From: a phage
Reading direction: 5' to 3' (one strand)
Sequence record: PZ445411.1
Length of the DNA stretch: 51,129 nucleotides
The notes below the pieces were generated by a model. The model was not told where the DNA came from. It searched no databases and was given only the letters and a program-made list of their open reading frames with translations. Below are positions 15,475-48,741 of the stretch, in pieces. Position 1 is the stretch's first letter. Every line of letters begins with the position of its first letter. The translations under genes and the position numbers were made by a program.

Positions 15475-15518
15475 CCCGTATAATTCAACAAATAAAATAG
15501 CACAAAAGGTGAAAAAGC

Positions 15519-20003: not shown

Positions 20004-20231
20004 TTACAGACTGCAATCAGCGTTTTTAAAGTTATCAATGCTTACCCACTGAAAATTAAACGGATAGCCAGCCTTAACAATAGTGCGGTCGCCAACTCGT
20101 TTTACTCCAAAAATAGCAACTGAATACTGCATACCGCTATTTTCATAAATAGCCGTGCATTCACGCTTAGGCATATTTGCACATCCAGTCAGTGTAACGG
20201 TTGCAATCAAAACGGCGATTAACTTTTTCAT
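20004..20231 (-). CDS. lipoprotein, Llp-like superinfection-exclusion candidate
   Basis: 75 aa; signal peptide with lipobox LTGC; overall pattern resembles T5 Llp as I recall it; RBS AAGGAG. Confidence 0.5.
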   Translation of the reverse strand: MKKLIAVLIATVTLTGCANMPKRECTAIYENSGMQYSVAIFGVKRVGDRTIVKAGYPFNFQWVSIDNFKNADCSL

Positions 20232-20262: not shown

Positions 20263-20304
20263 ACTATACACGATCTTGCGGTGGGCGTTTAGCAAAAAGT
20301 GCTA
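20263..20304 (-). promoter_or_regulatory. conserved box variant + TATAGT cassette upstream of Llp-like lipoprotein gene (minus strand)
   Basis: Minus strand TAGCACTTTTTGCTAAAC, 20 nt, TATAGT, then RBS AAGGAG and ATG 20231. Confidence 0.45.
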
Positions 20305-20415
20305 TTCTGTTCCTTTTGTTCTCCGGTGTTCTCAAATCTGCGGAGGCTTAAATTTAGCTCAAAAAGTGAACAGTAATAGAGCGCTATACATACGAATAAA
20401 TATATATACATACAT

Positions 20416-21794: not shown

Positions 21795-21875
21795 ACAGCA
21801 CAAATAGCTAAACAAATGAAAAATGCGGTGTTATAATTCACCGCATAAGTTAACAACAAGCGTGAGGAAATAAAC

Positions 21876-24958: not shown

Positions 24959-25192
24959 TTACAGAGTTTGCAGCCCCAGGTTGTTTACTCCTGTCTGGAT
25001 GTTATTAATACCATCAAGAACAGCGTTAGCACCGACAGCAACAGCAGCACCATCACCACCATAACCACCACGACCATTAAAGCCGTTACCAAACCATGAC
25101 CCAATCAGGCCACCAACAGCACCGCCAAGACCAGCCGCGCCAGCTTCGCCACCAAAACCACCACCAGTAGGGAGTAAAGTCATATCTGACAT
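24959..25192 (-). CDS. glycine-zipper-like small protein
   Basis: 77 aa; RBS AGAGGA; GxxxG-rich sequence GGGFGGEAGAAGLGGAVGGLIGSWFGNGFNGRGGYGG; ends at a TAA that is in frame with a further 157 open codons. Confidence 0.5.
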   Translation of the reverse strand: MSDMTLLPTGGGFGGEAGAAGLGGAVGGLIGSWFGNGFNGRGGYGGDGAAVAVGANAVLDGINNIQTGVNNLGLQTL

Positions 25193-28629: not shown

Positions 28630-28682
28630 ATACACCTCAAACAAAAAAGCCTGACAGATGATAACATCATGCCAGGCATTGT

Positions 28683-28702
28683 TTTTAGCAATTAGTGCTT
28701 TC
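28683..28702 (-). promoter_or_regulatory. conserved box variant overlapping the HTH gene stop, followed by hairpin and T-run (terminator-like)
   Basis: Minus strand AGCACTAATTGCTAAAAAC, then imperfect hairpin GCCTGGCA...TGTCAGGC and TTTTTTG before the primase-like gene. Confidence 0.35.
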
Positions 28703-29158
28703 AGGTTTATACAGGAATCCGCCAGGTTCATAATCTGACATTCTTACCACTCGCAACATTTCACGCTTATCACATCTCTTTGTGAGCGGTTTTCCATTGG
28801 AATCAAATCGCAGATCTGGACGGCAGAATGAAGCGCGATAGCCTTGACAGCCATACTTTTTGTAATCGTTATGCACCTTTTGAGCGCCAGCGGCTGAAAT
28901 CATACCGCGAACGCGCCACTGATTTACAGTTTGCTGGCTAACGTTAAGACGCTTTGCCATTGCTGACACGCTGCCGTAATACTCAATAAGAATGTCAAGC
29001 CGTGCTTTTAGTCCGGCGCGCACCTCATCTTTTAGAACATAATAACCTGTCGGTCGCTTGCGCTTCTTCTTGTCCTTGCCTCGTCTTGTTCCGTTATTGC
29101 CATTAATTGTGCGCTTGTCAATCTTGCCTGTTGATACCGCGATTCGTTGCTCTTTCAT
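28685..29158 (-). CDS. HTH DNA-binding protein (putative transcriptional regulator)
   Basis: 157 aa; RBS GGAG; helix-turn-helix-like SAMAKRLNVSQQTVNQW; very basic N-terminus; sits at a divergent promoter region. Confidence 0.55.
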   Translation of the reverse strand: MKEQRIAVSTGKIDKRTINGNNGTRRGKDKKKRKRPTGYYVLKDEVRAGLKARLDILIEYYGSVSAMAKRLNVSQQTVNQWRVRGMISAAGAQKVHNDYKKYGCQGYRASFCRPDLRFDSNGKPLTKRCDKREMLRVVRMSDYEPGGFLYKPESTNC

Positions 29159-29172
29159 TATTCATTCTCCAA

Positions 29173-29214
29173 TAGCATTTTTTGTTAAACGATGATTTAA
29201 TGATTGTGTATTAT
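29173..29214 (+). promoter_or_regulatory. conserved box + -10-like hexamer (promoter-like cassette) upstream of helicase gene
   Basis: TAGCATTTTTTGTTAAAC, 21 nt, TATTAT (29209-29214); in divergent intergenic region. Confidence 0.45.
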
Positions 29215-31287: not shown

Positions 31288-31693
31288 TAAAGGCGATTAT
31301 CTGGAGTTTTACGAAAGAGATCCGACGGATACGCTAAAGGAGGAATCACACCAGATCGGGGCGTTTCAATGGTTAACTTATGCTCATCCTGAATTTCTTG
31401 CCTGGCATACGAAAAACGAGGGCGACAAGGGGATCGCCACCGCAATGATGGATCAGCAAGCAGGACTCGTTAAGGGCGTAAGTGATTTTATCATCCTGAT
31501 TGGATTAAAAGGCCGTTATCCGTTTGCAGCAATTGAGATGAAGCGCGTCAATAAGTCTGGAAAGGGCAAGGCTTCACCAGTCAGTAAGGAGCAAAAAGCC
31601 TTCTTACGCCGTGTGCGCGAGCTTGGCGGATTCGCTGCCGTAACATACGGATATAAGCAATTCATGATCGCTGTAGAATACATGATGAAATAG
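31274..31693 (+). CDS. VRR-NUC domain nuclease
   Basis: 139 aa; RBS AAGGAG; PD-(D/E)XK-like D...EMK arrangement (SDFIIL...AAIEMKRV). Confidence 0.55.
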   Translation: MAMTDKGDYLEFYERDPTDTLKEESHQIGAFQWLTYAHPEFLAWHTKNEGDKGIATAMMDQQAGLVKGVSDFIILIGLKGRYPFAAIEMKRVNKSGKGKASPVSKEQKAFLRRVRELGGFAAVTYGYKQFMIAVEYMMK

Positions 31694-31733
31694 CACTTTT
31701 TGTTAAAACAGGCGCGAAGGATTGCGCCATAAT
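31691..31733 (+). promoter_or_regulatory. conserved box + hairpin + CATAAT cassette
   Basis: TAGCACTTTTTGTTAAAAC (TAG is the VRR-NUC stop), hairpin GGCGCGAAGGATTGCGCC, CATAAT 22 nt after TTGTTA. Confidence 0.5.
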
Positions 31734-32473: not shown

Positions 32474-32713
32474 ATGCAGAAAGAAAGAAGCGTTTATTTA
32501 AATGAAACTGGAGAGTGGTTGTTATTTCGCGCTATGGTTTGCGAGGCGCTTGATAAAAACGAGTTCATAAAACCGCTATTAGGTTGTGATCCGTGGGAGT
32601 TTACAAGCGCGCTTGACATGAGCTTTGAGGAAACAAGAAAACTACCGCTTGAAAAATGGCATGAGCAGATCGGTAAAGACTTGCAAGAGTTTTACGAATC
32701 CGCGACAAAATAG
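32474..32713 (+). CDS. hypothetical protein
   Basis: 79 aa from ATG 32474; stop codon TAG is the first triplet of a conserved box. Confidence 0.45.
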   Translation: MQKERSVYLNETGEWLLFRAMVCEALDKNEFIKPLLGCDPWEFTSALDMSFEETRKLPLEKWHEQIGKDLQEFYESATK

Positions 32714-32753
32714 CACTTTTTGTTAAAACGCCCGGCCTTGTGTCGGGCATAAT
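32711..32753 (+). promoter_or_regulatory. conserved box + hairpin + CATAAT cassette
   Basis: TAGCACTTTTTGTTAAAAC, hairpin GCCCGGCCTTGTGTCGGGC, CATAAT at 32748-32753. Confidence 0.5.
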
Positions 32754-34773: not shown

Positions 34774-35261
34774 TGAGCATAAAACAAAGAGTGACCGCTG
34801 CGGCTTTTGGCGTTGCTCTTGCTCTTACTTCTCCATTACTGGAGGAAATAGAAGGAGTAAAATATAAGCCGTACAAAGATATTGCTGGAATATGGACGGT
34901 TTGCGCCGGAATAACTGGATCTGACGTAATACCAGGTAAGACGTACACGAAGAGAGAATGCGATGCGCTACTGGCAAAGCATATCAAGATCGCAAAGGAT
35001 GAAGTTGATAAGCGTGTGAATGTTGATATTCCTGATACAATGCGCGCGGCAATGTATTCATTCACATACAATGCTGGCACTGGTGCTTTTAGAAATTCAA
35101 CCATGCTTAAGCTGATTAATAACGGTCGTTATATGGAAGCGTGCAATCAGTTATGGCGATGGACAAAATACACCAATCCAAAAACAGGAAAGAAAGAAAC
35201 GTCTAAAGGACTGCGCAACCGCCGCGCTGTGGAATTTAAATATTGCATTAAGGATCTGTAA
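34773..35261 (+). CDS. endolysin (T4-type lysozyme)
   Basis: 162 aa; catalytic E-x8-D-x5-T arrangement ([16 protein letters not shown]); start overlaps holin stop. Confidence 0.8.
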
Positions 35262-35263
35262 TT

Positions 35264-35662
35264 ATGAGAAAGTTATCAGTAATCGCGATCGCTGTTATCT
35301 TGTCTGGATGTTCAAGCGTTACGCCACTGACCGGATTGATAGGAAACAAGCCTGAGATAACAGCACAGGCAGGAGCGGAGAACGTAAAACAGACCGTCGG
35401 CCTGACAGCAAAACAGGACGCCAGCACAAAACAGGATACGACAATTAAAGAGTCGAAAGTTGACACTGTTGATACTTCAAACAAAAAGGAGATCAGAACG
35501 TCAACCATTCAGGCTAACACCATCAAGGCTGATAAAATCCAGGTGGTACAGGGTGAGCAAGGTAAGTGGTACGATCCTATAATATATTGCGCTGCAATTT
35601 TTAGTGGTCTTTTGTTAATGACTTACTTTTCCTACCGCAAAGGCAACAAAAAGGAGGCTTAA
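35264..35662 (+). CDS. unimolecular spanin (u-spanin)
   Basis: 132 aa; N-terminal lipoprotein signal (LSGCSS) plus C-terminal TM helix, the architecture described for T1 gp11. Confidence 0.65.
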   Translation: MRKLSVIAIAVILSGCSSVTPLTGLIGNKPEITAQAGAENVKQTVGLTAKQDASTKQDTTIKESKVDTVDTSNKKEIRTSTIQANTIKADKIQVVQGEQGKWYDPIIYCAAIFSGLLLMTYFSYRKGNKKEA

Positions 35663-35676
35663 CGCCTCCTTTGTTA
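35645..35676. terminator. bidirectional hairpin between convergent spanin gene (+) and minus-strand block
   Basis: AAGGAGGC-ttaac-GCCTCCTT; both convergent stop codons fall in or beside the hairpin. Confidence 0.5.
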
Positions 35677-35868
35677 TTCAATTCTCTTTACAGTAACCAA
35701 CAAAACGCCGTCCTCATCACACAAATTATGCTCTGATATGTTAAACGCTCGCATGTCAGAATGAATTAGCGTTAACATTGCGTGCATGAAGTCGTCATGT
35801 GAGATTGAACTTACGGCGCAGAACTTCAATATTTTGTCTATTAGCATTTGACGTAAACAATTCTTCAT
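35674..35868 (-). CDS. hypothetical protein (possible 3' part of a frameshifted gene)
   Basis: 64 aa; overlaps ORF 35795-36187 by 74 nt in another frame. Confidence 0.3.
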   Translation of the reverse strand: MKNCLRQMLIDKILKFCAVSSISHDDFMHAMLTLIHSDMRAFNISEHNLCDEDGVLLVTVKRIE

Positions 35869-36187
35869 CGCTCATTTCTCCGATCCGTAAAACATCCCTT
35901 ACCCATTCGTTTTGCATACCATCCAGGCTGTAAAGTTCAAACGAGAAAGGGCGATTTGCTGATCCTTTCTTACACCAGAACTTTCCACCAACTCCATCAA
36001 GATAACCAGCGGTCATCATTCTTGCGCAAAACTCTTTTGAAACGGCAGTAGCAAACATTCTCGGCGTAAATCCTGCGGCCCTTGCTAGCCGCTCACATTC
36101 TCTATGCTGAAAGATAAATTTTGCTATATGTTGACGCGTAAACCATTCGAATGACTCACACCAGCGATACAGATCCAGAAGAAACAT
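35795..36187 (-). CDS. hypothetical protein
   Basis: 130 aa; ATG 2 nt after the upstream stop (TAATTATG). Confidence 0.4.
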   Translation of the reverse strand: MFLLDLYRWCESFEWFTRQHIAKFIFQHRECERLARAAGFTPRMFATAVSKEFCARMMTAGYLDGVGGKFWCKKGSANRPFSFELYSLDGMQNEWVRDVLRIGEMSDEELFTSNANRQNIEVLRRKFNLT

Positions 36188-36189
36188 AA

Positions 36190-37773
36190 TTACCCCAGCA
36201 ATGTTGGATTTACGAAAACAACGCCATTAATCACACAAATATAATTTCTTTCTTCAAGCATCGGCAGCAGTTGCGTTTCCATACGCTTCATTACGCCAGC
36301 CTGACCAACAAACGGCTTAACTTTTCGTGCTGCCTCATATATGGCGCGCACATTCAGGATTCCCTTATTAGCCTTGCCGTGTCGAGTGATTATCTCGATT
36401 AGTTTACCCATTTCAGCATCATCACCAGCGTAGCCAGAAGCGTTGGCGGCGCTAATGTATGTTTTGCTCAACTCGCTAAACATCAACAATGCTTCCTGAA
36501 CGGTTTCAACCTCAATCTCTTTCGACTTCTGAGGGTATCCGCCAGGATTAAACCAATTTCGGATAGTGTGCAAAACCGAAGCAATCCTGATCACCTGCTT
36601 ATCCATTTTGCCAAGAGCGCCGCGCAGCATTGTATGCGAATACTTTCCGCCATCAGCAAGGTGCGGCTCCATCTCCTGACGAGCCATGTTAAGAACTCGC
36701 ATTGCTGATTTGCTGATCTTAAGCTGGATGTTTGATTCACTCATGATGTTATGGATCAGCTTGAAATATTGGCTTTTCAGTTCCCCATCAACAGGCTCAT
36801 AAGTAGAATCACCGTTATCATCAACAAACTTTCTACGGCCTAAAAATGATTCCTCACGCACAAGCAAATAACGCTCACTTACACCGATACCGCGCGATCC
36901 TGCATCCATGATGGCATTGATTGTTTCATCCTGGGCAATTACCGCCATACAGCCAAGAGCTTTAAAACTCATATTGTTGTCAGCGTTTGCACGAGCTATA
37001 GAAACATGACCATGATCCCATGCTTTTAGCACAAGTTCGCTGTTGGTTTTACGTTCGCTATTGGCATATGTCAGACCTAAAAGGCTGTTAATACTTGTTG
37101 CCTCGTCTGAAATCACAGCAAAGTTACCCTGGCGATTGTTGATTCTTGCAAGTCCTTCCGGCGTTGTGTCGGACACAGGGAAAACGATGTCACACATCTT
37201 TTCCAGTTTTTCTTCCAGATCTTCTTTCTCCTGGTACAGAGACTCCATATCAGCGCCGGAGCGCTCGCTTTTCATCTCTTTTGCAAGACCTGCCAACTTT
37301 GCCTGAATCTTTTTTCTTTCCTTCTTTCGCTGATCATTAATTCTTTCCACTTCAGCAACCATAGGAGCAAGTGCCAGGCTGTTAACGGCAGATTTACCAG
37401 TTGATGGAGGCTGGCTTGTGACAACGTAAAGAGCGGTTGGTTGATCCGTTCCGTGATACTCAACCGTGAAGCGTCCAAGCATTGCAGCAGATACACAGCC
37501 GATAAAATGCATATATGCCGATGATTCAGGGAATTGAACAGATCGAGCAATGTTTCGCGCCAACTTTCCAACAACATCAACATCATTGCCAAGAGAAATT
37601 ACAGGGTAGCGATCGTTTCCGTTATTAACATCATTAACCTCACCCCAAAAGCTGGACGATTGACGGTATCCGTTAGCCTGAATGGACACGCGCACCGGAG
37701 ACAATCCTTGTGCATCAGCTAATTCGATAATTTGTTTTGGTGTTAGTTTATTGGTTTCAAACGAAAAATTCAT
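36190..37773 (-). CDS. primase/helicase-like replication protein (P-loop)
   Basis: 527 aa from ATG 37773 (RBS AAAGGAG); the longer track start 37827 would overlap a conserved box; P-loop-like SQPPSTGKSA. Confidence 0.5.
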   Translation of the reverse strand: MNFSFETNKLTPKQIIELADAQGLSPVRVSIQANGYRQSSSFWGEVNDVNNGNDRYPVISLGNDVDVVGKLARNIARSVQFPESSAYMHFIGCVSAAMLGRFTVEYHGTDQPTALYVVTSQPPSTGKSAVNSLALAPMVAEVERINDQRKKERKKIQAKLAGLAKEMKSERSGADMESLYQEKEDLEEKLEKMCDIVFPVSDTTPEGLARINNRQGNFAVISDEATSINSLLGLTYANSERKTNSELVLKAWDHGHVSIARANADNNMSFKALGCMAVIAQDETINAIMDAGSRGIGVSERYLLVREESFLGRRKFVDDNGDSTYEPVDGELKSQYFKLIHNIMSESNIQLKISKSAMRVLNMARQEMEPHLADGGKYSHTMLRGALGKMDKQVIRIASVLHTIRNWFNPGGYPQKSKEIEVETVQEALLMFSELSKTYISAANASGYAGDDAEMGKLIEIITRHGKANKGILNVRAIYEAARKVKPFVGQAGVMKRMETQLLPMLEERNYICVINGVVFVNPTLLG

Positions 37774-37800
37774 TGATGATAACTCCTTTTTGATGCGGCA

Positions 37801-37843
37801 ATAATACCGCACCAATGCTACCCGCATTTAACAAAAAATGCTA
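37801..37843 (-). promoter_or_regulatory. conserved box + TATTAT cassette (minus strand)
   Basis: Minus strand TAGCATTTTTTGTTAAATG (TAG is the stop of gene 37841-38062), 22 nt, TATTAT; upstream of primase/helicase-like gene. Confidence 0.5.
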
Positions 37844-38062
37844 TTTTATCCGCTCTATGCTAACTAAGATTTTTTCTGGTTCCTTTGCACTATGGCAATG
37901 CGCGGTTACAGAATCAACAAAATCAAAGTAAAGTGATTTGTGATATGAGAATCCAATCAGCCACCCAACCATCGTTTTCTTTATTGGCCTGACTACATCG
38001 CCAGGCTTGAAGGTTTTTGTTGCTGAATAAGTCACCTTATAGCGATATTCAGTCTTGATCAC
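37841..38062 (-). CDS. hypothetical protein
   Basis: 73 aa; apparent GTG start overlapping upstream stop (GTGA); stop codon TAG is part of a conserved box. Confidence 0.35.
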   Translation of the reverse strand: MIKTEYRYKVTYSATKTFKPGDVVRPIKKTMVGWLIGFSYHKSLYFDFVDSVTAHCHSAKEPEKILVSIERIK

Positions 38063-38445
38063 TTATACATAGCCTCAAACAAATGACAGCCACCAGCGGA
38101 AAACCCTACTTCTTCGCGGTATAGCGTCCAGCGGTCGCCAGCTTCATCAAACACATAACCAGCAACAGCGCCAAGCGCGCGGCCTTGCTCAATCTGGTAG
38201 CGCTTTCCTTCTTTGAAATGCTTTTTACAAGGGATCTTGTGATCTACAAAGGTGCATTTAATTGTTTTTGTCTTGATATGACGATAGTCAGACTCAACAG
38301 CGTTTTGCCACTTACTACCCTTTGTAATGCTCTTTACCTGGAATTGTTCCAACTCGATCACATCATCGCTACCAGCAATTTTTTCGTATACAGCTTTATA
38401 ACGACCGTTCATCAAAACGTTGGTTTTATTGCAGATAACTTTCAT
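38059..38445 (-). CDS. hypothetical protein
   Basis: 128 aa; RBS AAAGGAG; preceded by box, hairpin and CATAAT. Confidence 0.5.
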   Translation of the reverse strand: MKVICNKTNVLMNGRYKAVYEKIAGSDDVIELEQFQVKSITKGSKWQNAVESDYRHIKTKTIKCTFVDHKIPCKKHFKEGKRYQIEQGRALGAVAGYVFDEAGDRWTLYREEVGFSAGGCHLFEAMYK

Positions 38446-38476
38446 CGTTTATTTCTCCTTTCGTTTCGGTGAAGTG

Positions 38477-38519
38477 ATTATGCCAGGCTTTTACACCTGG
38501 CTTTTAACAAAAAGTGCTA
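38477..38519 (-). promoter_or_regulatory. conserved box + hairpin + CATAAT cassette (minus strand)
   Basis: Minus strand TAGCACTTTTTGTTAAAAG (TAG is the Dcm stop), hairpin CCAGGTGTAAAAGCCTGG, CATAAT 22 nt after TTGTTA. Confidence 0.5.
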
Positions 38520-39227
38520 TTTTGCGTTAGCTTCAAAGATTGCGCGAGCAAAACCGCGCGGTGTGAGGGAGCGGATCATCTTTGTACGAGATGATTTTCC
38601 GCCAGTTTTGGCCCAGCCAGGATTATACTTGTCGTCCTCTTTCGGTAGGATCGTTGCGCGCTGAGGAATAACAAAGCCGTTACCAGTCCAAAGGCATGTT
38701 TTCTTAAAGTACCGATCCCGCGCCGGAATAATATCAGGGAAGTCGGGATGTTTATCATCTTCCGGCAGATAGCCAGCGTAATCGCACGGATGGAACGTAT
38801 AATCAGGCTTACGCCATAACGTTGACAGCTTGCCTACAGGATTCTCTATCATGTAAGGAACACCGAAATAATCAGCGATATGAGCGGCTATTTTGCAAGT
38901 GTCGGCGGCCTCATTTTGGAAGTTAGGATTTTCCATGCGCTTTTTAGCCCAATGGCGAGATCCGCTGTTTGCTAATTGTGTGCAAGGTGGGAAGGCCATA
39001 ATGAAATCAGGCTTACCCCAATTTAAAAGTTTTGCGGTATATTTGAATAGATCATCAATCCACACATTAACGTAAAAAATGTTATCATGGATTATGCGCA
39101 CTGATTGGTAATCGCCGTGATCGGCATCATCGTAATTAAAGCAAATGCATTTATAACCAGCATCAGCCCAATCTTTAACAGCCTTACCAGATCCATCAAA
39201 CAAAGAGAAAATTAAACCTTTATACAT
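38517..39227 (-). CDS. DNA C5-cytosine methyltransferase (Dcm-like)
   Basis: 236 aa; motif I FSLFDGSG, catalytic PC motif FPPCTQ, ENV-like MIENPVG; RBS GAGGTGA. Confidence 0.65.
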   Translation of the reverse strand: MYKGLIFSLFDGSGKAVKDWADAGYKCICFNYDDADHGDYQSVRIIHDNIFYVNVWIDDLFKYTAKLLNWGKPDFIMAFPPCTQLANSGSRHWAKKRMENPNFQNEAADTCKIAAHIADYFGVPYMIENPVGKLSTLWRKPDYTFHPCDYAGYLPEDDKHPDFPDIIPARDRYFKKTCLWTGNGFVIPQRATILPKEDDKYNPGWAKTGGKSSRTKMIRSLTPRGFARAIFEANAK

Positions 39228-39236
39228 TTCATCACC

Positions 39237-39461
39237 TCAAAACGGAAAGCATCGCGGGCAGTTAGGATCAAAATTGCATCCGCAATCATTGACAATCATA
39301 GTTGGATCTGCAAATGCAGCGCCGCATTCATGATCCATATCCATTTCACCCAGCGCATCATCAAGCGTTCTGATCTTATATGCAACTTCAAGCGCTGCCT
39401 CTTTATTTAATCCGGCATCTTCAGCCATTTGCAGGCGCTCAAAAAATCCGTCCTGACTCAT
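39237..39461 (-). CDS. Cys-rich small protein (possible zinc-binding)
   Basis: 74 aa; RBS AAGGAG; C-terminal HECG...DCGCNFDPNCPRC cluster. Confidence 0.5.
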   Translation of the reverse strand: MSQDGFFERLQMAEDAGLNKEAALEVAYKIRTLDDALGEMDMDHECGAAFADPTMIVNDCGCNFDPNCPRCFPF

Positions 39462-39571
39462 TTCATAATCTCCTTTATAGCAACCAAAATAATAGCAAGA
39501 CCAGCAGTGACAACAAAAAGACCAGCAAGGCCAATCATCACTACAAATAAAATATCAAGAAATTTCATCAT
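39458..39571 (-). CDS. small hydrophobic peptide (single TM)
   Basis: 37 aa MMKFLDILFVVMIGLAGLFVVTAGLAIILVAIKEIMK; RBS AGGTGA; stop overlaps next ATG (ATGA). Confidence 0.35.
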   Translation of the reverse strand: MMKFLDILFVVMIGLAGLFVVTAGLAIILVAIKEIMK

Positions 39572-39618
39572 TATTATCACCTTTATTTAAAGGGAGGCGG
39601 AAACCTCCCATTGGTTAA

Positions 39619-39846
39619 TCATACAGCCTTCCAGCTTTCAATAAACATGCTGTTTTCTTCCAGCAGTTTAATCAATTCTTCGCGCGTGTATTTGCGGATT
39701 TTACTACCTGGATGTGAGCCAACAACAAACACACCTTTACCACTCGTGATTGTTAACTGGTTGATTCCGCAAGATTTATCCATCTTAATTGCGACGCGGT
39801 GATGTGCATCAACAGTGTTCATGATGTTAGTAACTTTAGCTTTCAT
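39619..39846 (-). CDS. hypothetical protein
   Basis: 75 aa from ATG 39846 (RBS GAGGA); the track start 39909 lies inside a conserved box. Confidence 0.45.
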   Translation of the reverse strand: MKAKVTNIMNTVDAHHRVAIKMDKSCGINQLTITSGKGVFVVGSHPGSKIRKYTREELIKLLEENSMFIESWKAV

Positions 39847-39876
39847 TATGCAATCCTCATTATATTTGGTGTGATA

Positions 39877-39918
39877 ACTATACCAGGTTTGAGAAATATT
39901 GTTTAGCAATTCGTGCTA
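39877..39918 (-). promoter_or_regulatory. conserved box variant + TATAGT cassette (minus strand)
   Basis: Minus strand TAGCACGAATTGCTAAAC, 21 nt, TATAGT; upstream of gene starting 39846. Confidence 0.45.
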
Positions 39919-40020
39919 TCAGTTGAAATAGCTATGGCGCTTTGCTCGCTTGCCGTCTCCGCCATAATGATCATTTGCAACAGCTACCATCCAGGAATTA
40001 TGGAATATTATTAGCTTCAT

Positions 40021-40302
40021 CTAATTAATGCCAACAACGTTAAAACTTACAGCTTTTGTTGCGCTAAATACATACGCTTCAACAGCCTCACCAAATACAC
40101 GAATTTTTCCATAGCCGTACTGCGCATTCATATTGCGCCAAACCGTCCTGTTAGAACAGAACGCGTTACCAGTCTTGATAAGATTATCAATCTCTTTTCT
40201 TAGGTCATGATAATCAAGCCAGAATCTATAAGCGCGTTGTTTAATGAGTTGCGCCTTGATTGTTTCGGCTGAGTTTTTAAAATCGCTGTTTTTGTATGCC
40301 AT
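40021..40302 (-). CDS. hypothetical protein
   Basis: 93 aa; RBS GGAGG; start overlaps upstream stop. Confidence 0.5.
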   Translation of the reverse strand: MAYKNSDFKNSAETIKAQLIKQRAYRFWLDYHDLRKEIDNLIKTGNAFCSNRTVWRNMNAQYGYGKIRVFGEAVEAYVFSATKAVSFNVVGIN

Positions 40303-40496
40303 TACACAACCTCCATAAAAGTATTGAATCCACGCAGTTTGAAAGCATTGCCATGTTTAACAACGTTCCATGTCAGGCCGGAGTGATACGCAACCATATC
40401 CTCAAGATCAATTGTGATGATAGCGCCTTTCTTAAAGATTCCTTTCTCGTGAGTGGTGTCACGCTGTACAACTTTAACGTCAACCTGTGTTTCCAT
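40302..40496 (-). CDS. hypothetical protein
   Basis: 64 aa; weak RBS AGGAT; preceded by a box and -10-like hexamer. Confidence 0.45.
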   Translation of the reverse strand: METQVDVKVVQRDTTHEKGIFKKGAIITIDLEDMVAYHSGLTWNVVKHGNAFKLRGFNTFMEVV

Positions 40497-40527
40497 TTTT
40501 AAATCCTAGTTCGTTGTCGATGCGCTT

Positions 40528-40570
40528 AATATACCAATCAGAGTCGCATCGGTTTTAACAAAAAGCGCTA
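40528..40570 (-). promoter_or_regulatory. conserved box + TATATT cassette (minus strand)
   Basis: Minus strand TAGCGCTTTTTGTTAAAAC (TAG is the stop of gene 40568-40858), 22 nt, TATATT. Confidence 0.45.
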
Positions 40571-40858
40571 TTCAACAACAGATCCGGTCAAAGAGATAAG
40601 CTGCCTTGTGATCTTGTGTCTGCGATACTGGCGCGCAACAACCGGAAGATTTTCACCGCTTTGATGACCGAAGCAGATCGGCAACTCACCCTCAAGAGAG
40701 CGGAAGCCGCCAAACTCAAGATCACGCACAGGCTTTGAGCGCCACGCTTCAATAAATCCGCGTTCGTCACGCGTGATATAGCGGTATATGTTCGGGAGGG
40801 GCAATTGTATCCCCTCAAAATCCACTGTATCGGTATAGCTGTAAAACTTAGAACTCAT
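40568..40858 (-). CDS. hypothetical protein
   Basis: 96 aa from ATG 40858; stop codon TAG is part of a conserved box; start overlaps stop of the upstream small ORF. Confidence 0.45.
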   Translation of the reverse strand: MSSKFYSYTDTVDFEGIQLPLPNIYRYITRDERGFIEAWRSKPVRDLEFGGFRSLEGELPICFGHQSGENLPVVARQYRRHKITRQLISLTGSVVE

Positions 40859-41000
40859 AGTCAACAACTCCAAATTCGTTAACAATTTGCGCCTTATAGA
40901 ATCCGCCATTTTTCGCCAGGTTATAACATGCCGCTACAGTTTCAAATTCGCGCACTTCCGGCTGGCTGTTTTCGTGTTCCCAGGTAATCAGAGTAACCAT
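40848..41000 (-). CDS. hypothetical small protein
   Basis: 50 aa MVTLITWEHENSQPEVREFETVAACYNLAKNGGFYKAQIVNEFGVVDYEF; RBS GAGGA; not in ORF track (below cutoff). Confidence 0.35.
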   Translation of the reverse strand: MVTLITWEHENSQPEVREFETVAACYNLAKNGGFYKAQIVNEFGVVDYEF

Positions 41001-41033
41001 TTTCAAATCCTCGCATTCGTTATCGATGTGTGT

Positions 41034-41076
41034 AATGTACAGGAATACGAGGATTGAGTTTTAACAAAAAGTGCTA
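41034..41076 (-). promoter_or_regulatory. conserved box + TACATT cassette (minus strand)
   Basis: Minus strand TAGCACTTTTTGTTAAAAC, 22 nt, TACATT; flank CGATGTGTGTAATGTAC shared with the copy at 41912-41954. Confidence 0.45.
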
Positions 41077-41077
41077 T

Positions 41078-41344
41078 TTAGTCCAGGAATTCGATTTCGC
41101 GCTCGCCAGTTAACGGATCTACAAGCCAGAATCCTAGCGCCTCACCGTAAATACCGCCATAGAATCCAAGCGCCGACAGATCCTCACCTTTAACAAATAC
41201 CAGATCCCCGCTACGGCTTACGTGAGATACGTTAACGATAACCGGAAAGGTGCGATCCTTAAATGCAGGCCGCAGGGAGTAACACCCGTTATTGAGCAAA
41301 CGTGCTTTGCGCTTAACTGGAATAGGTGCATTGATTCGCGCCAT
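41078..41344 (-). CDS. hypothetical protein
   Basis: 88 aa; RBS AAGGAG; stop followed by a conserved box. Confidence 0.5.
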   Translation of the reverse strand: MARINAPIPVKRKARLLNNGCYSLRPAFKDRTFPVIVNVSHVSRSGDLVFVKGEDLSALGFYGGIYGEALGFWLVDPLTGEREIEFLD

Positions 41345-41357
41345 CTTTATTTCTCCT

Positions 41358-41603
41358 TCATTGTTGATCGTGTTTAACTGCCATCAGAACATCACAGGAC
41401 TCGTTAATAAATTTTGCCATGCGCTTATCATCACCAGCAGGGATTAGCGCGTTAAACTCGCGTTTGCTACTGAACACCGTCACTTTATGGAATGATGCGA
41501 ACGGCATAGACGGAAACTCCACGGTTTTCGTCAGTATACGCAAACCCATCTTTTTGGCCCTTACCTGGGCCTCGGCAAGTTCAAAATCCACTTCACTAAT
41601 CAT
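41358..41603 (-). CDS. hypothetical protein
   Basis: 81 aa; RBS GAGGAG; start overlaps upstream stop. Confidence 0.5.
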   Translation of the reverse strand: MISEVDFELAEAQVRAKKMGLRILTKTVEFPSMPFASFHKVTVFSSKREFNALIPAGDDKRMAKFINESCDVLMAVKHDQQ

Positions 41604-41872
41604 TTCTTGATCTCCTCAGCAATAAACTTCAGGACTTTGCGCAAAAACACTTCATTATTGATGGTAGCTGGCAATTCCTCTTTCACTTCTTGCGGCAGAT
41701 AGATATTACCGTGCCAGGTTAAGCAATCGTAATTGATACGATAAGAGCAAAGCCACTCGCAATCGTTATCCGCTTCCCAAATGCAGAGTTGCAGAACATC
41801 GACAAAATCTTCAACAGTCAGATCCAGACCGTGACGCTTTGCAAAGTTGAAAGTGGTTTTGCTGATGTTCAT
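41600..41872 (-). CDS. hypothetical protein
   Basis: 90 aa; RBS AGGAGA; Cys/Trp-rich. Confidence 0.5.
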   Translation of the reverse strand: MNISKTTFNFAKRHGLDLTVEDFVDVLQLCIWEADNDCEWLCSYRINYDCLTWHGNIYLPQEVKEELPATINNEVFLRKVLKFIAEEIKK

Positions 41873-41911
41873 TTTACTGTCTCCTGATGGGTATCTCGTT
41901 TCGATGTGTCT

Positions 41912-41954
41912 AATGTACCCGATCAGGCGGATTCAGTTTTAACAAAAAGTGCTA
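41912..41954 (-). promoter_or_regulatory. conserved box + TACATT cassette (minus strand)
   Basis: Minus strand TAGCACTTTTTGTTAAAAC, 22 nt, TACATT; lies in the 3' end of ORF 41923-42210. Confidence 0.45.
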
Positions 41955-42210
41955 TTTGCTGACTGGTCATTATTCCATCTATTCCATTAATCAGGAATAA
42001 CAGGAATAACTCATTCTCGATCACCTGGATTGTGAGACTTTGAGTTTGATCAATTTTAATCAGGTGATTAACTTTTTGTGTGGAGGGGATAGAGAAACAC
42101 GGCCCTCTTGCATCCTTTCCTGCAATCATGGCGCGCGCATCTGTTATTTCTGTTCTCCGTGTTATCTCAAATAAGCCTCCGCACTTTGAGATAACAGAAA
42201 CGGCGTTCAT
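41923..42210 (-). CDS. hypothetical protein (first gene of the leftward block; start uncertain)
   Basis: Open frame ends at 41923; no convincing RBS for ATG 42210 or 42249; a conserved box lies in its 3' end where it encodes IALFVKT. Confidence 0.3.
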   Translation of the reverse strand: MNAVSVISKCGGLFEITRRTEITDARAMIAGKDARGPCFSIPSTQKVNHLIKIDQTQSLTIQVIENELFLLFLINGIDGIMTSQQIALFVKTESA

Positions 42211-42247
42211 CAACAAAAAGAACAAAATAAAATTTATATATATACCC

Positions 42248-42288
42248 ATAAAATCAATAAGTTAGTTATATATGTATTTATATTTGTT
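42248..42288. repeat. conserved AT-rich segment, copy B (partner at 20416-20455)
   Basis: ATAAAATCAATAAGTTAGTTATATATGTATTTATATTTGTT; followed by GT-rich degenerate repeats to about 42420. Confidence 0.6.
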
Positions 42289-42544
42289 ATTTACTGTTGA
42301 GCTTGTTCTATGGGTATATGGTGGTGTGGTATTGTTTGTGGTGATATGTATGTGTGATTGTATATTTTTTAATCAATGGTGATGTGTGGTGATTTTTGTA
42401 TGTATATATATGGGTATGGAGCAATCCTCCGTCAACCAAGTAAACAATGTCATTTTTAACAGAAAAACCAATGACTTAACTGAAGCATTTTGTTATCTTT
42501 AAACGCGCCACGTGCCAAAAATTGTTATTAAAACACAAAATATA

Positions 42545-42574
42545 TTGACATGTAGGAAAGGCAAGGCAATAATG
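42545..42574 (+). promoter_or_regulatory. strong sigma70-like early promoter for the rightward small-gene block
   Basis: Consensus -35 TTGACA (42545-42550), 17-18 nt spacer, -10 ATAAT around 42568-42574; 36 nt upstream of ATG 42610. Confidence 0.55.
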
Positions 42575-42609
42575 CATCCAGTTCAAACGCAACAAAAGGA
42601 GTAGACGCC

Positions 42610-43095
42610 ATGAATGAAGAAAATGTTAGTTCTATGTCGCGTAGTGAGTTCTGCGATATGCTTCGCAGCCTGGGCGCGGCAATTGGTAGCGGCGAGCGTA
42701 ACAATGTATTCATGCCAGCACTTTTCTTGTGCGCTAACGTGGAGAACGGCGACGCAATTACAGCATCGTACATGCGCCAGGTGGTAAACCGTGTGCCAGA
42801 AGTAAAGCAAAAAGGCGTGATCAGCATTAAGCGAAAGGTGACTGATGAGGGTGATGGCTTTGTGTTTACGCTCACTGAAGCCAAAAGCAAGCCTCGCGTT
42901 CTGACTGGTGAAGAAATCGACGAGATCGCAGAAAAGCGCGCAGAGAAGGCGGTAAGCAAAATTCTTAATCACCTGGTAAACGTAATGCCAAATATCACAG
43001 ACATGGAAGGCGACAAACTTGCTGGAGCGTGTGAGGCTATCGGGCGCTACCAGGATATGATTCGTAAACTCGCTGGAGGAAAAGAGGATGAATAA
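42610..43095 (+). CDS. hypothetical protein (first rightward early gene)
   Basis: 161 aa; RBS AAAGGAG; 36 nt downstream of a near-consensus promoter. Confidence 0.55.
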   Translation: MNEENVSSMSRSEFCDMLRSLGAAIGSGERNNVFMPALFLCANVENGDAITASYMRQVVNRVPEVKQKGVISIKRKVTDEGDGFVFTLTEAKSKPRVLTGEEIDEIAEKRAEKAVSKILNHLVNVMPNITDMEGDKLAGACEAIGRYQDMIRKLAGGKEDE

Positions 43096-43348
43096 GGCAT
43101 TAATTGGAGTTTTGATTGCAATTGCTACCCTGACCGGATGCGAAAAGGCATCTGAATCAACAGTTGTCGTAGGAGTTGAGTCAGATTTCAAAGTCGGTCG
43201 CCTGTTCACTGTTGACGGATGCACGGCATACCGATTCTATGACAACGGTCGAGCAATCTATTACACCAATTGCAAGGGCGCAACGGATAGCACATACCGC
43301 ATCGGCAAAAACGTAATGCACCAACAAGTCACAACAGATATTAAATAG
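43088..43348 (+). CDS. lipoprotein
   Basis: 86 aa; signal peptide with lipobox LTGC; three further Cys; stop TAG is the start of a conserved box. Confidence 0.55.
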   Translation: MNKALIGVLIAIATLTGCEKASESTVVVGVESDFKVGRLFTVDGCTAYRFYDNGRAIYYTNCKGATDSTYRIGKNVMHQQVTTDIK

Positions 43349-43388
43349 CACTTTTTGTTAAAACGCCAGGCGCAAAGCCTGGCATAAT
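43346..43388 (+). promoter_or_regulatory. conserved box + hairpin + CATAAT cassette
   Basis: TAGCACTTTTTGTTAAAAC (TAG is the lipoprotein stop), hairpin GCCAGGCGCAAAGCCTGGC, CATAAT at 43383-43388. Confidence 0.5.
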
Positions 43389-43420
43389 AGCCTCATCGAA
43401 ACGAGATTGAGGAAAACAAA

Positions 43421-43807: not shown

Positions 43808-43808
43808 A

Positions 43809-43851
43809 TAGCACTTTTTGTTAAAACTAAAAAACGATAACCAGTCATAAT
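43809..43851 (+). promoter_or_regulatory. conserved box + CATAAT cassette
   Basis: TAGCACTTTTTGTTAAAAC, 22 nt, CATAAT at 43846-43851. Confidence 0.5.
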
Positions 43852-44788: not shown

Positions 44789-44857
44789 GCATTTACACGT
44801 TGATGCACATTGCAGGCTGGATAGGACTGTTTGGATACATCCTAATGAATTATTAAA

Positions 44858-44899
44858 TAGCACGAATTGTTAAAACTCAAATGTGGGGCCAGGTATAAT
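44858..44899 (+). promoter_or_regulatory. conserved box variant + TATAAT cassette
   Basis: TAGCACGAATTGTTAAAAC, 21 nt, TATAAT at 44894-44899 embedded in GGCC...GGCC palindrome. Confidence 0.5.
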
Positions 44900-45148: not shown

Positions 45149-45861
45149 TGAAAAAATACGAGTTCGAACTTTGGGGCATCAAATACCATTTTTCCACGAG
45201 CAAGCCGATTGTTATTGTTGATCTGGACGGAACGTTATCAGATGGAACGCATCGCTTGCACCTGCTGCCGACAGAAGATTTGCACCTTACAGAAAGCTGG
45301 TCTGAGTTCAACAAAGCGGCTGTTGGCGATTCGCCGATTAAGAGCACGGTTGCAGTGGTTAACGGATTGTGGATGTCAGGATTTGCCATCGTTATCCTGA
45401 CCGGGCGTAGCGATGAAGTGATTGAGGACACCTGCAAATGGCTTAACGAAAACGGCATCAAGTACGATGCGTTAATCATGCGACGCAAGGAAGACAACCG
45501 CAAAGACACAATCATCAAAGAAGAAGTCTTGCGCGCTATCGGACTGGAAAACATTGTGTGCGCTTTTGATGATTCGCCGAACGTTGTTAAGCACTTCCGC
45601 AGCCTGGGAATCACAACCTATCAGGTCACGGAATACGACAAGCCACATAGTCACATCCAATCGCACGGCGTTGAAGCAATCAAGATCACGAAGCGCGCCC
45701 GATTCGTTGGCAGCAAAGACAGCCTTGTGAATGCCAGCTTTACTAGAGGAATAACCTATGACGTTGTTTCTTATCATGACAAGAGCTTTATAGTTCATGA
45801 TGATTCTGGATGCGCCTGGTCATTCGATCATAGTGACGGCGATTTTGTTAATGCTGAATAG
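45148..45861 (+). CDS. HAD-superfamily phosphatase (nucleotidase / polynucleotide phosphatase-like)
   Basis: 237 aa; HAD motif I VDLDGTLSDGTHR; RBS GAGGAAG. Confidence 0.6.
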   Translation: MKKYEFELWGIKYHFSTSKPIVIVDLDGTLSDGTHRLHLLPTEDLHLTESWSEFNKAAVGDSPIKSTVAVVNGLWMSGFAIVILTGRSDEVIEDTCKWLNENGIKYDALIMRRKEDNRKDTIIKEEVLRAIGLENIVCAFDDSPNVVKHFRSLGITTYQVTEYDKPHSHIQSHGVEAIKITKRARFVGSKDSLVNASFTRGITYDVVSYHDKSFIVHDDSGCAWSFDHSDGDFVNAE

Positions 45862-45901
45862 CACTTTTTGCAAAAACAGATTATCGGGCTTGCGGTATAG
45901 T
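45859..45901 (+). promoter_or_regulatory. conserved box variant + TATAGT cassette
   Basis: TAGCACTTTTTGCAAAAAC (TAG is the HAD phosphatase stop), 22 nt, TATAGT at 45896-45901. Confidence 0.5.
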
Positions 45902-46765: not shown

Positions 46766-47356
46766 ATGAAACGAGACATTATCATTCTTAACGGACCGCC
46801 AGGAGTTGGCAAAGATACGCTTGCGGCATACTTAACTGGTCATCGTTACGCAGCCGTTAAAGCGTCGTTTAAACAGCCTATGTTCGATATTGCATTCTCC
46901 ATGCTTGGCGTTTACCGATATGACGAGTTCATTGATCTGTATAACGACCGCGAGCAGAAAGAAAAGCCTCAAGCAATCTTGCAAGGCAAGTCACCGCGCC
47001 AGTTCATGATCTGGATTAGCGAAGAAGTCATGAAGCCAGCTTTTGGCGAGCAATATTTTGGGAATCGCATGGTTGAGCAAGTACACGAGATGTACAGGGA
47101 TTTAGCTGTTGTAATTAGCGATGGCGGATTCCCTGAAGAAATCAAGCCTCTCGTTAAGGCAGGCCATGAAGTTCACATTTGCCGACTGCATCGCGAGGGA
47201 TTCACGTTTGATGGAGATTCGCGAAACTATATTGACCTGAGCGGATACCATCACCGAGTCAAGCATTACGACTTCACAATGACTGATGGCGAGCCAGAAA
47301 AGACTGTTGACGAGATCATCAAAACTGTCCAGTGGAAACACATTAAGATCAAATAG
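46766..47356 (+). CDS. P-loop nucleotide kinase (dNMP kinase-like)
   Basis: 196 aa; Walker A GPPGVGKDT near N-terminus in an arrangement resembling phage dNMP kinases; RBS AGAGGGG. Confidence 0.6.
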   Translation: MKRDIIILNGPPGVGKDTLAAYLTGHRYAAVKASFKQPMFDIAFSMLGVYRYDEFIDLYNDREQKEKPQAILQGKSPRQFMIWISEEVMKPAFGEQYFGNRMVEQVHEMYRDLAVVISDGGFPEEIKPLVKAGHEVHICRLHREGFTFDGDSRNYIDLSGYHHRVKHYDFTMTDGEPEKTVDEIIKTVQWKHIKIK

Positions 47357-47396
47357 CACGAATTGCTAAAAGCGGGGCGCAATGCCTCGCTATAAT
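47354..47396 (+). promoter_or_regulatory. conserved box variant (palindromic TAGCA-N5-TGCTA) + TATAAT cassette
   Basis: TAGCACGAATTGCTAAAAG (TAG is the kinase stop), 22 nt, TATAAT at 47391-47396. Confidence 0.5.
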
Positions 47397-48410: not shown

Positions 48411-48698
48411 ATGGCTAAAAGCAATCGTAAAATGTTGATTAACGCATTCGAAAAGGCGGCGCTTGAGCGTGGTTGGAATGACTCATTTCACACAGCAAAC
48501 TGTATCCGCCGTTACGGATTCAAGAATTGCCGATCCTGGGCGCGTCAAATGGCTTCATGGTATGATCTTGATGCGCATTACCTTGATATGGATTGCGCCC
48601 TGGTTGAAATGATTGAGCAGGCCGCATTAGAGGATCGACCATTAACGCAATCTGATTTTGACGATTTTGTGCGCGATGAAATCTATTACATGAGCTAA
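48411..48698 (+). CDS. hypothetical protein
   Basis: 95 aa from ATG 48411 with RBS AAAGGAGG; followed by a conserved box. Confidence 0.5.
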   Translation: MAKSNRKMLINAFEKAALERGWNDSFHTANCIRRYGFKNCRSWARQMASWYDLDAHYLDMDCALVEMIEQAALEDRPLTQSDFDDFVRDEIYYMS

Positions 48699-48741
48699 TA
48701 GCACTTTTTGTTAAAACTTCCGCGAGGGCATTTGTTAAAGT
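48699..48741 (+). promoter_or_regulatory. conserved box + weak -10-like hexamer
   Basis: TAGCACTTTTTGTTAAAAC, 22 nt, TAAAGT; a second TTTGTTAAAG follows at 48731-48740. Confidence 0.45.

Follow-up and report, generated by a model that had tools for sequence, protein, structure and literature searches.

Predicted early promoters built around a marbox-like repeat in a T1-like phage

The phage sequence PZ445411.1, analysed here over its whole length of 51,129 nucleotides (nt; hereafter the window), carries a short conserved box in six copies on the minus strand of its leftward early block, each copy standing ahead of a gene and followed by a -10-like hexamer. By sequence identity the window is a Drexlerviridae genome of Hanrivervirus-like type. 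An 8-kb query (35000-43000) is 94.8% identical to Escherichia phage herni (Hanrivervirus herni) and matched 338 phage records, essentially all of them T1-like (Drexlerviridae, the closest genus being Hanrivervirus), which bears out the guess of a T1-like phage that had been made from the letters of the DNA. The portal protein shares 99.8% identity with its counterpart in Salmonella phage slyngel and matches about 1,000 records, some of which are not T1-like. Among the leftward genes, the one at 40302-40496 (minus), served by the copy at 40553, matches the Pfam family PF25180 'Phage antiviral trigger protein Gp54' (E 1.5e-37). Between the two divergent early blocks lies a GT-rich low-complexity stretch (42250-42420) with GGTG(A/G)T, TGTG and TATATAT repeats. 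No clear leftward sigma-70 promoter was found in 42250-42420, so the box at 41937 may mark the first leftward promoter. On the plus strand, a box-free near-consensus promoter (TTGACA-17-AATAAT, 42545-42573) precedes the first rightward gene (42610-43095, DUF7174).

All six copies listed on the minus strand in an earlier, sequence-only reading of this DNA are present. The intervals given there, 42-43 nt long, are bounded by box position 2 and by the last base of the -10 hexamer and thus cover a whole promoter core, the box proper being a 19-mer (Table 1). A search with the 21-mer AATAGCACTTTTTGTTAAAAC at up to 3 mismatches returns 15 occurrences in the window against 0.00 in 100 shuffles, so that chance is no explanation for the repeat. 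A position matrix was trained solely on sites from T1, Klebsiella phage KP36 and Cronobacter phage ESP2949-1. In the window 20 boxes reach at least 22 bits with it, the next best site scoring 16.5 bits, and within 35.5-42.3 kb it returns exactly the six noted copies (22.5-29.4 bits) and no further one. These 20 strong boxes divide evenly between the strands (10/10), but 18 of the 20 are co-oriented with the next gene. The box end lies 52-64 nt from the start codon in 17 of the 18 co-oriented copies and 80 nt from it in one (43808); for the six leftward copies, all co-oriented with the next gene, the distance to the ATG is 52-64 nt from the box end and about 71-83 nt from the box start. The earlier reading had taken strand-consistent orientation as the sign of a transcription-linked function, and equal frequency of both orientations as a sign against it; counted relative to the genes, the orientation supports such a function, which the hexamer at fixed distance sharpens to promoters. 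Whichever way they point, the 20 strong boxes all lie outside the interior of genes, the two antisense copies (5823 and 9582, minus) both being intergenic.

Table 1. Cassettes, their parts and related features, in coordinates of the window (gap, distance from box end to -10 hexamer)
Feature	Position	Strand	Sequence	Gap (nt)	Remarks
Box	37826-37844	minus	ATAGCATTTTTTGTTAAAT		22.5 bits; TAG is the stop of upstream gene 37841-38062
-10 hexamer	37801-37806	minus	TATTAT	19	predicted +1 A at 37794; helicase gene ATG 37773
Box	38502-38520	minus	ATAGCACTTTTTGTTAAAA		29.2 bits; TAG is the stop of methyltransferase gene 38517-39227
-10 hexamer	38477-38482	minus	CATAAT	19	predicted +1 38470; ATG 38445
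Box	39901-39919	minus	ATAGCACGAATTGCTAAAC		'GAA' subgroup; 29.4 bits; free-standing, 101 nt past upstream stop
-10 hexamer	39877-39882	minus	TATAGT	18	preceding TGG (extended -10); predicted +1 39870; ATG 39846
Box	40553-40571	minus	ATAGCGCTTTTTGTTAAAA		23.3 bits; TAG is the stop of gene 40568-40858
-10 hexamer	40528-40533	minus	TATATT	19	preceding TGG; predicted +1 40521; ATG 40496
Box	41059-41077	minus	ATAGCACTTTTTGTTAAAA		29.2 bits; abutted by TAA stop of gene 41078-41344
-10 hexamer	41034-41039	minus	TACATT	19	predicted +1 41027; gene start probably ATG 41000, in-frame TTG at 41006
Box	41937-41955	minus	ATAGCACTTTTTGTTAAAA		first of leftward block
-10 hexamer	41912-41917	minus	TACATT	19	predicted +1 41905; ATG 41872
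Cassette	43345-43388	plus	-10 CATAAT	19	spacer hairpin GCCAGGC/GCCTGGC
Cassette	43808-43851	plus	-10 CATAAT	19	
Cassette	44857-44899	plus	-10 TATAAT	18	'GAA' subgroup
Cassette	45858-45901	plus	box ATAGCACTTTTTGCAAAAA; -10 TATAGT	19	
Cassette	47353-47396	plus	-10 TATAAT	19	'GAA' subgroup; top score, 31.7 bits
Cassette	48698-48741	plus	-10 TAAAGT	19	
Cassette	29172-29214	plus	-10 TATTAT	18	upstream of the gene for a 679-amino-acid helicase
Cassette	31690-31733	plus	-10 CATAAT	19	spacer hairpin GGCGC/GCGCC
Cassette	32710-32753	plus	-10 CATAAT	19	spacer hairpin GCCCGGC/GTCGGGC; T-rich tail after hexamer
Cassette	21795-21837	plus	box ACAGCACAAATAGCTAAAC; -10 TATAAT	18	'AAA' subgroup
Cassette	20263-20305	minus	-10 TATAGT	18	upstream of lipoprotein gene 20004-20231 (minus)
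Cassette	28658-28701	minus	box AAAGCACTAATTGCTAAAA; -10 TATCAT	19	overlaps stop of the gene for a 157-amino-acid helix-turn-helix protein
Capsid promoter	5817-5844	plus	TTGCAC-16-TGcTATCAT		canonical, strong; major capsid gene
Antisense cassette	9557-9600	minus	-10 TAGCAT	19	box at 9582; against flanking late genes, just downstream of major tail gene

The boxes are tightly packed against the genes that precede them. The copies at 37826, 38502 and 40553 supply the upstream gene with its stop, the TAG within the box (ATAG), and at 41059 the TAA of the upstream gene abuts the box and gives it its 5' A's, so that the earlier statement of four copies overlapping an upstream stop codon is true in substance. 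The box at 41937 overlaps just the last 10 codons of a doubtful open reading frame (41923-42249) that has no ribosome-binding site and is annotated in some relatives only. As the upstream gene usually ends in the box TAG, there is no separate intergenic region.

Each cassette consists of four parts, namely the 19-mer box, a variable, GC-rich spacer of 18-19 nt, a -10 hexamer, and a conserved CA start before the start codon. This anatomy was described on 63 sites that match the marbox 19-mer of enterobacterial regulators (see below) with at most one mismatch in the window, T1, KP36 and ESP2949-1, which represent four Drexlerviridae lineages; a -10-like hexamer was defined by A at position 2, T at position 6 and at least 4 of 6 matches. 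Such a hexamer follows the box at 18-19 nt in 53 of the 63 sites (19 nt in 44, 18 nt in 9), with 0-3 of 63 at most other offsets, and the six leftward copies show a gap of 19 nt in five cases and of 18 nt at 39901. The earlier placement of the hexamer at 21-22 nt downstream is right when counted from TTGTTA. When the sites are aligned on box and hexamer, the information lies in one A plus the 19-mer, in the hexamer itself (TATaaT) and in a 'cA' 6-7 nt past it, while a G two bases ahead of the hexamer (-14) carries 1.3 bits. By textbook distance and sequence the conserved 'cA' is the predicted start site and is used here as the putative +1. A loosely conserved leader (A-C-AAAC-A) and then a ribosome-binding site lie downstream of the predicted start. 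From that position the leader reads (C)ATCGAAACGA(R) in many of the cassettes in the window, T1 and KP36 (e.g. 43389-43410; 41885-41911 and 38450-38476, minus). The flank shared by the copies at 41034 and 41912, CGATGTGT(G/C)TAATGTAC, is likewise real and corresponds on the minus strand to the TACATT hexamer, the discriminator and the CATCG start region. Across 19 window cassettes the spacer length follows the last base of the 19-mer, ...TAAAA being followed by 19 nt in 13 of 14 cases and ...TAAAC by 18 nt in 4 of 4, so that the C after the A run stands at a constant 18 nt from the hexamer. The cassettes are very probably promoters, with the six copies serving the leftward early genes.

The comparative alignment that had been suggested as a check points the same way. 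Each of the six cassettes was aligned with the orthologous stretches of 4-6 close relatives (herni, PGN590, aaroes, aalborv, pSf-1 and one IMG/VR contig), and the variable columns number 4/114 in the box and 1/36 in the hexamer, as against 30/114 in the spacer, 51/360 in the upstream coding ends and 24/180 in the leader. Box and hexamer are more constrained than the adjoining coding sequence while the spacer is free, the pattern left by a promoter of two elements at fixed spacing. At box position 6 of the copy at 40553 (40566) the window reads ATAGCGC and all five relatives ATAGCAC, the G thus being derived; since this position is otherwise invariant, a weakened 40553 promoter is predicted in this phage.

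The repeat as such has been described before, which the earlier reading did not notice, nor did it notice the marbox match. The 2024 re-annotation of phage TLS reports 21 copies of a 21-nt direct repeat, 18 of them between genes, with the consensus aaATAGCACnnnTTGnTAAAA; the intergenic copies are oriented with transcription and lie about 76 nt ahead of start codons, they are sorted into A, T and G subgroups by their middle triplet (TTT, GAA, AAA), and the repeat is also reported for T1, Rtp and Rogue1 (PMC11447400). The same authors found only three sigma-70-like promoters in TLS, suggested stoperators, enhancer sites or UP elements, and put the function of the repeat among the open questions (PMC11447400). 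The window repeat, with 20 strong copies, agrees with the TLS type in consensus, position and copy number (about 18-21 per genome), and each of the six leftward copies has 0-2 mismatches to the 19-mer of the TLS-type repeat. They are thus members of the TLS repeat family, and the observation as such is not new. What is added here, and absent from the TLS paper, is the four-part anatomy with its fixed -10 partner and conserved start, together with the marbox match. No paper linking T1-like phages to mar/sox/rob was found in the literature searched, most subscription journals lying outside its coverage, and no transcript map of any T1-like phage was found there. A pattern scan of IMG/VR gave among the matches listed multi-copy contigs of about 28-53 kb, which is T1-like size, and scattered single matches.

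How polymerase would recognise these cassettes is less obvious, as they hold no usable -35: TTGTTA lies 21-22 bp and TTAAAA 18-19 bp from the hexamer. TTGTTA is ruled out as a -35 hexamer by that distance. Within the stretch covered by a generic promoter scan, 2 of 10 cassettes were caught, 39901 being listed as TAAACA-17-TATAGT and 44870-44899 as TTAAAA-18-TATAAT. The latter listing, the good hexamers and the G at -14 (1.3 bits), which amounts to a partial extended -10, favour the view that the cassettes are factor-independent sigma-70 promoters, in which the box would act as an UP-like element or surrogate -35 and the marbox likeness would be coincidental or modulatory only. UP elements were among the suggestions of the TLS authors (PMC11447400), at micF and sodA, two class II promoters of the host, polymerase is bound even in the absence of an activator (PMC2787020), and 41937, perhaps the first leftward promoter with nothing upstream of it, may need to fire on host proteins only. 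UP elements are, however, A/T tracts upstream of the -35, whereas an invariant GCAC (2 bits per base) and an asymmetric 19-mer are found here at the -35 itself, and the usual 19-bp spacing to TTAAAA is poor for sigma-70. The box is moreover conserved more strongly than coding sequence, and neither an UP nor a -35 role explains the reversed box inside the spacer of another promoter that is described below. Factor-independent sigma-70 promoters are thus judged unlikely. As an UP element in the strict sense the box fails, since it spans -50 to -32 and holds GCAC, and most copies have no -35 at 16-18 bp from the -10. A sigma-54 promoter (TGGCAC-N5-TTGC) is ruled out as well, GCAC and TTG being 3 nt and not 5 nt apart and a sigma-70-type hexamer lying 19 nt downstream, and sites for sigma-28, sigma-32, IHF, CRP, Fis and DnaA, compared by eye with their consensus sequences, are unfit in spacing or core bases.

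The spacers raise the question of a role in RNA. In the cassettes of the four genomes their GC content is 57% against 44-51% genome-wide, and the spacer together with the sequence up to 12 nt beyond the hexamer is more stably folded than shuffled sequence (mean z -2.9; z below -1.5 in 37 of 53). The cassette at 38502 has a spacer hairpin (GCCAGG-N7-CCTGGC) that is kept in 5 relatives, among them pSf-1 with a shifted version, and the one at 37826 an inverted repeat (TGCGG/CCGCA) around its TATTAT hexamer. Many discriminators are C-rich (CCCCA) and pair with GGGG in the spacer, placing the hexamer in a hairpin loop; the leader and this discriminator pairing might serve RNA processing, RNA stability or stringent-type control. 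Several loops are GNRA-like, and rho-independent terminators are annotated inside box-hexamer spacers in T1 (38973-39001, 39998-40024, 41980-42007 and, on the minus strand, 35930-35971) and in KP36 (40317-40338). These annotated terminators overlap the promoter, with the T-rich hexamer region as U tract. The T1 orthologue of the cassette at 32710 is an annotated terminator too, and at 28658 a T run follows a terminator-like hairpin made of spacer and tail. It is on such features that the cassettes might be held to act chiefly at the level of RNA or termination, the hairpins with their T-rich hexamer tail being terminators, processing or stability signals that separate modules and the box being a mere flank. 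The cassettes at 32710 and 28683 do fit a rho-independent terminator; among the six leftward ones a clean spacer hairpin occurs only in 38502, with a weak T tail. A generic terminator scan gives no excess (9 against 9.4 expected), and no Rfam family was matched in an E-value scan of 35-45 kb. The hairpin of 40553 is lost in herni and PGN590, and 39901, 41059 and 41937 have none; hairpins kept in some copies and lost in others are treated here as a facultative add-on. Of all cassette parts the spacer is conserved least, many hairpins have the hexamer inside them and then run into ATCGAAAC instead of a U tract, and an invariant box, hexamer and CA start would go unexplained. A chiefly RNA-level function is therefore very improbable, and an RNA or termination role would rather be a secondary one, confined to some copies.

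The promoter reading gains a candidate activator site from the box itself. The box fits the marbox/soxbox of Escherichia coli, at which the monomeric activators MarA, SoxS and Rob, each with two helix-turn-helix motifs, bind. Its consensus has been quoted as AYNGCACNNWNNRYYAAAYN (PMC2064960) and, by the Grainger laboratory, as GCANNWWNTGNNAAA (PMC12052159). A 15-mer marbox defined on E. coli finds exact matches at 19 sites in the window, 20 in T1, 19 in TLS, 14 in KP36 and 8 in ESP2949-1, compared with about 1-1.6 in shuffles and 1 in lambda. Five of the six leftward copies are within one mismatch of the 19-mer marbox consensus, and that at 40553 has 2 (the G at position 6, and position 19). 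To avoid circularity, 79 sites were picked solely by ATAGCA-N9-AAA and the free positions were then counted: at position 7, 64 sites have C and 13 have T; A or T occupies position 10 in 77 sites and G position 13 in 75, while C or T is found in 71 sites at position 14 and in 73 at position 15. Within the phage family it is positions 8-10 and 14 that vary, and exactly these are n, W or Y in the marbox. The micF site ACAGCACTGAATGTCAAAAC and the mar site (reverse complement ATGCCACGTTTTGCTAAATC) closely resemble the phage consensus, and these are also the sites with the two lowest of three tabulated MarA dissociation constants, 50 and 75 nM as against 2,000 nM for sodA (PMC2787020).

The geometry is that of host class II promoters of the mar/sox/rob regulon, which carry a forward marbox overlapping the -35 and centred between -36 and -55 (PMC12052159). 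In E. coli MG1655 the 19-mer is separated from the hexamer by 19 nt at micF (TAGAAT, with the annotated RNA 5' end 7 nt past the hexamer), sodA (TATAAT) and inaA (TATAGT) and by 18 nt at fumC (AATAAT), and the phage cassettes share both the orientation and the gap of 18-19 nt with these four promoters. With the predicted CA as +1, the 20-bp site runs from -50 to -31 (the 19-mer to -32) with its centre at -40.5 and lies in forward orientation, GCAC distal and AAA proximal; published work puts the micF RamA site at about -41. Judged by these correspondences, the box looks like a marbox-type site in class II geometry.

Of the two boxes that are antisense to the late genes, intergenic and conserved in T1, one bears on whether the box binds a protein. 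In the canonical capsid promoter, the reverse complement of the box (5823-5841, minus) makes up the 16-bp spacer together with the first 3 nt of the -10. The same arrangement occurs in T1 (TTGACG-16-TATTAT, 15062-15089) and in TLS (TTGAAC-16-TATATT, about 15018-15045). The hexamer that goes with the box at 5823 (TATGCG) is poor, so this box is not a leftward promoter, and as promoter spacers are normally free while this reversed box is kept in three genera, it would seem to be a protein-binding site in its own right. Marboxes of either orientation centred from -35 to +25 are allowed for repression (PMC12052159), and the reversed box looks like an operator, placed where a bound protein would be expected to block polymerase. 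The T1 counterpart of the other antisense box, 9582, lies at 18832-18850 (minus) with the hexamer TAAGAT, and none was found in TLS and KP36 at up to 3 mismatches. A bidirectional terminator hairpin (about 9520-9540) stands about 20 nt past the antisense cassette at 9557, which would yield an antisense RNA of about 35 nt or convergent interference.

The protein in question could be encoded by the phage itself, as activator, repressor or stoperator protein, with the marbox likeness due to convergence. Two candidates come to mind. The DUF7174 protein, immediate-early, is expressed from the canonical promoter ahead of the first rightward box and is confined to T1-like contigs; its structural model predicts an N-terminal domain of helix-strand-helix-helix-strand-strand order with weak winged-helix matches, followed by a helical hairpin, though these fold matches are not significant (best Foldseek E 0.08). 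The other is the 157-amino-acid Cro/YdaS-like protein (28685-29158), the sole recognisable helix-turn-helix protein, homologous to T1 ST23 ('transcriptional regulator') and conserved next to the primase in T1, TLS, KP36 and ESP2949-1. The box is also far more uniform than host marboxes, and copies with C at position 14 contain a partial dyad, TAGCA-N5-TGCTA. The strongly conserved positions of the box (A1, C7, T11, A16-19) are nonetheless asymmetric and suit a monomer with two reading heads rather than a symmetric dimer; as a protein of the single helix-turn-helix type is expected on symmetric sites, the 157-amino-acid protein is a poor fit. A symmetric dimer site TAGCA-N5-TGCTA is ruled out as the principal explanation by the same asymmetry of the conserved flanking positions. 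A stoperator, for its part, needs neither a fixed -10 partner nor a conserved start, no AraC-type protein was found in the phage, and the exact host class II spacing and orientation would be left as an unexplained coincidence. Recognition by a phage-encoded protein is on balance fairly improbable. A phage-encoded MarA-like activator in particular is rejected: MarA and SoxS sequences used as phmmer queries (--max) against six-frame open reading frames gave no homologue in the window or T1 (best E 0.19), and no AraC/HTH_18 Pfam domain occurs in 40 early open reading frames.

Host proteins of the MarA family thus come to the fore. Escherichia, Shigella, Salmonella, Klebsiella, Citrobacter, Cronobacter and Enterobacter, the host genera, have Rob, MarA and SoxS, and several have RamA. 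In the mechanism proposed here, a host MarA-family protein (MarA, SoxS or Rob; RamA in Klebsiella) would bind the box as a monomer with two helix-turn-helix motifs, contact sigma-70 region 4 and the alpha C-terminal domain, and so recruit host RNA polymerase to about 18 phage promoters that have a good -10 without a -35 partner. SoxS is regarded as a co-sigma-like factor that moves polymerase from UP-element promoters to soxbox promoters (PMC2064960). Rob would be the obvious candidate because it is made constitutively, although it is largely sequestered in the absence of inducers (PMC2787020). After the CA start a leader of about 20-30 nt with the ribosome-binding site would follow. As upstream genes end inside the box, transcription from upstream enters the next cassette, which would make the cassettes internal booster promoters in co-directional blocks; some spacer hairpins, with the T-rich hexamer region, may partly terminate these upstream transcripts. 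The reversed site in the capsid promoter spacer would serve as operator, so that a single protein could switch on the early promoters while restraining that of the capsid gene, and titration of that protein by replicating genomes might, as a speculation, act as a timer.

Several points weigh against a host activator. Position 19 is A in 54 of the 79 sites where the consensus has Y, micF of E. coli having A there as well, and SoxS prefers C at position 15, where the phage box has T. The phage box reaches about 30 bits, positions that are free in the marbox being nearly fixed as TTTTT or GAATT; this excess uniformity could reflect a different, more specific binder or extra constraints such as the stop codons and the T/A tract by the hairpins. 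MarA and SoxS are scarce, and Rob largely sequestered, in unstressed E. coli (PMC2787020). T1-like phages grow well in ordinary broth, and no binding, transcription or 5'-end data on T1-like phages were found in the literature searched. Weighing both sides, activation by host MarA, SoxS or Rob is the leading mechanism, at about an even chance, and the explanation preferred overall, namely leftward early promoters with a marbox activator site used by a host MarA-family protein, is held with slightly better than even confidence. The wider proposal is tentative, and we consider it possible more than probable: some 18 early and middle promoters would be wired to host MarA, SoxS, Rob or RamA through near-optimal class II marboxes, the reversed site would be the capsid operator, and phage development would be coupled to antibiotic, oxidative and bile stress.

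A few features stand apart from the regular cassettes. A degenerate box, ATAGCACAAAAGGTGAAAA (15497-15515, plus), ends 3 nt before the ATG of the gene for a 1141-amino-acid tail protein, where it overlaps the ribosome-binding region without a -10 partner, and T1 shows the same arrangement (25021-25039). The lipoprotein gene at 20004-20231 (minus), with a Pfam LPAM_1 match, is the sole minus-strand gene of the late block and has its own box promoter; its T1 equivalent is annotated as Cor superinfection exclusion. A small immediate-early lipoprotein gene at 43088-43348 (plus) was recognised by eye from its lipobox (LTGC).

Reading the cassettes as marbox promoters gives a testable answer to the question of repeat function flagged in the TLS paper for the T1-like phages, which are among the oldest of the model phage groups. 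If it is true, a virulent phage would run most of its early programme through a stress and antibiotic-resistance regulon of its host, which would be surprising. With about 20 high-affinity sites on each of hundreds of genome copies, the activator would then be titrated away, shutting down the mar/sox/rob response of the host and moving the phage from early expression to late. The mar/sox/rob/ramA status of the host, often altered by clinical resistance mutations, would be predicted to matter for plating efficiency as well as for phage therapy with Drexlerviridae against E. coli, Klebsiella and Salmonella, and compact, very strong marbox promoters would become available to synthetic biology. 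Even if a host activator proves wrong, the anatomy annotates about 20 promoters per genome, missed by automated scans, in several hundred Drexlerviridae genomes.

Among known systems, the stoperators of mycobacteriophage L5 are likewise many asymmetric sites oriented with transcription in short intergenic regions. They are operators for the prophage repressor of a temperate phage and lack a -10 partner at fixed distance, whereas T1-like phages are virulent and their cassettes show full promoter anatomy; the orientation rule of stoperators holds in the window, yet each copy has a fixed -10 and start, and no repressor was identified, the sole helix-turn-helix protein being Cro/YdaS-like. The middle promoters of T4 likewise combine a conserved box in place of the -35, a sigma-70 -10 and an activator. 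There the centre of the MotA box is near -30, at 11-13 bp from the -10, and the phage proteins MotA and AsiA, the latter for sigma appropriation, are needed, domains of which none were found in the 40 open reading frames scanned.

The E. coli class II marbox promoters share with the phage cassettes the asymmetric 19/20-bp consensus, the forward orientation, the overlap with the -35, the gap of 18-19 nt and the lack of a good -35. Host marboxes are very degenerate, whereas the phage sites are nearly identical and number about 20 per 50 kb in a virulent phage; compared with host class II promoters, position 19 is mostly A in the phage and the spacers are GC-rich and often hairpin-forming, the likeness being one of sequence and spacing. 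MarA represses rob, purA and hdeA through a marbox overlapping the core promoter, and the reversed box over the spacer and -10 of the capsid promoter in the window, T1 and TLS occupies a like position, a likeness of placement. Closest of all is the TLS repeat, which has the same consensus, subgroups, intergenic co-oriented placement and copy number, with nothing essential different, the window extending it to another genus.

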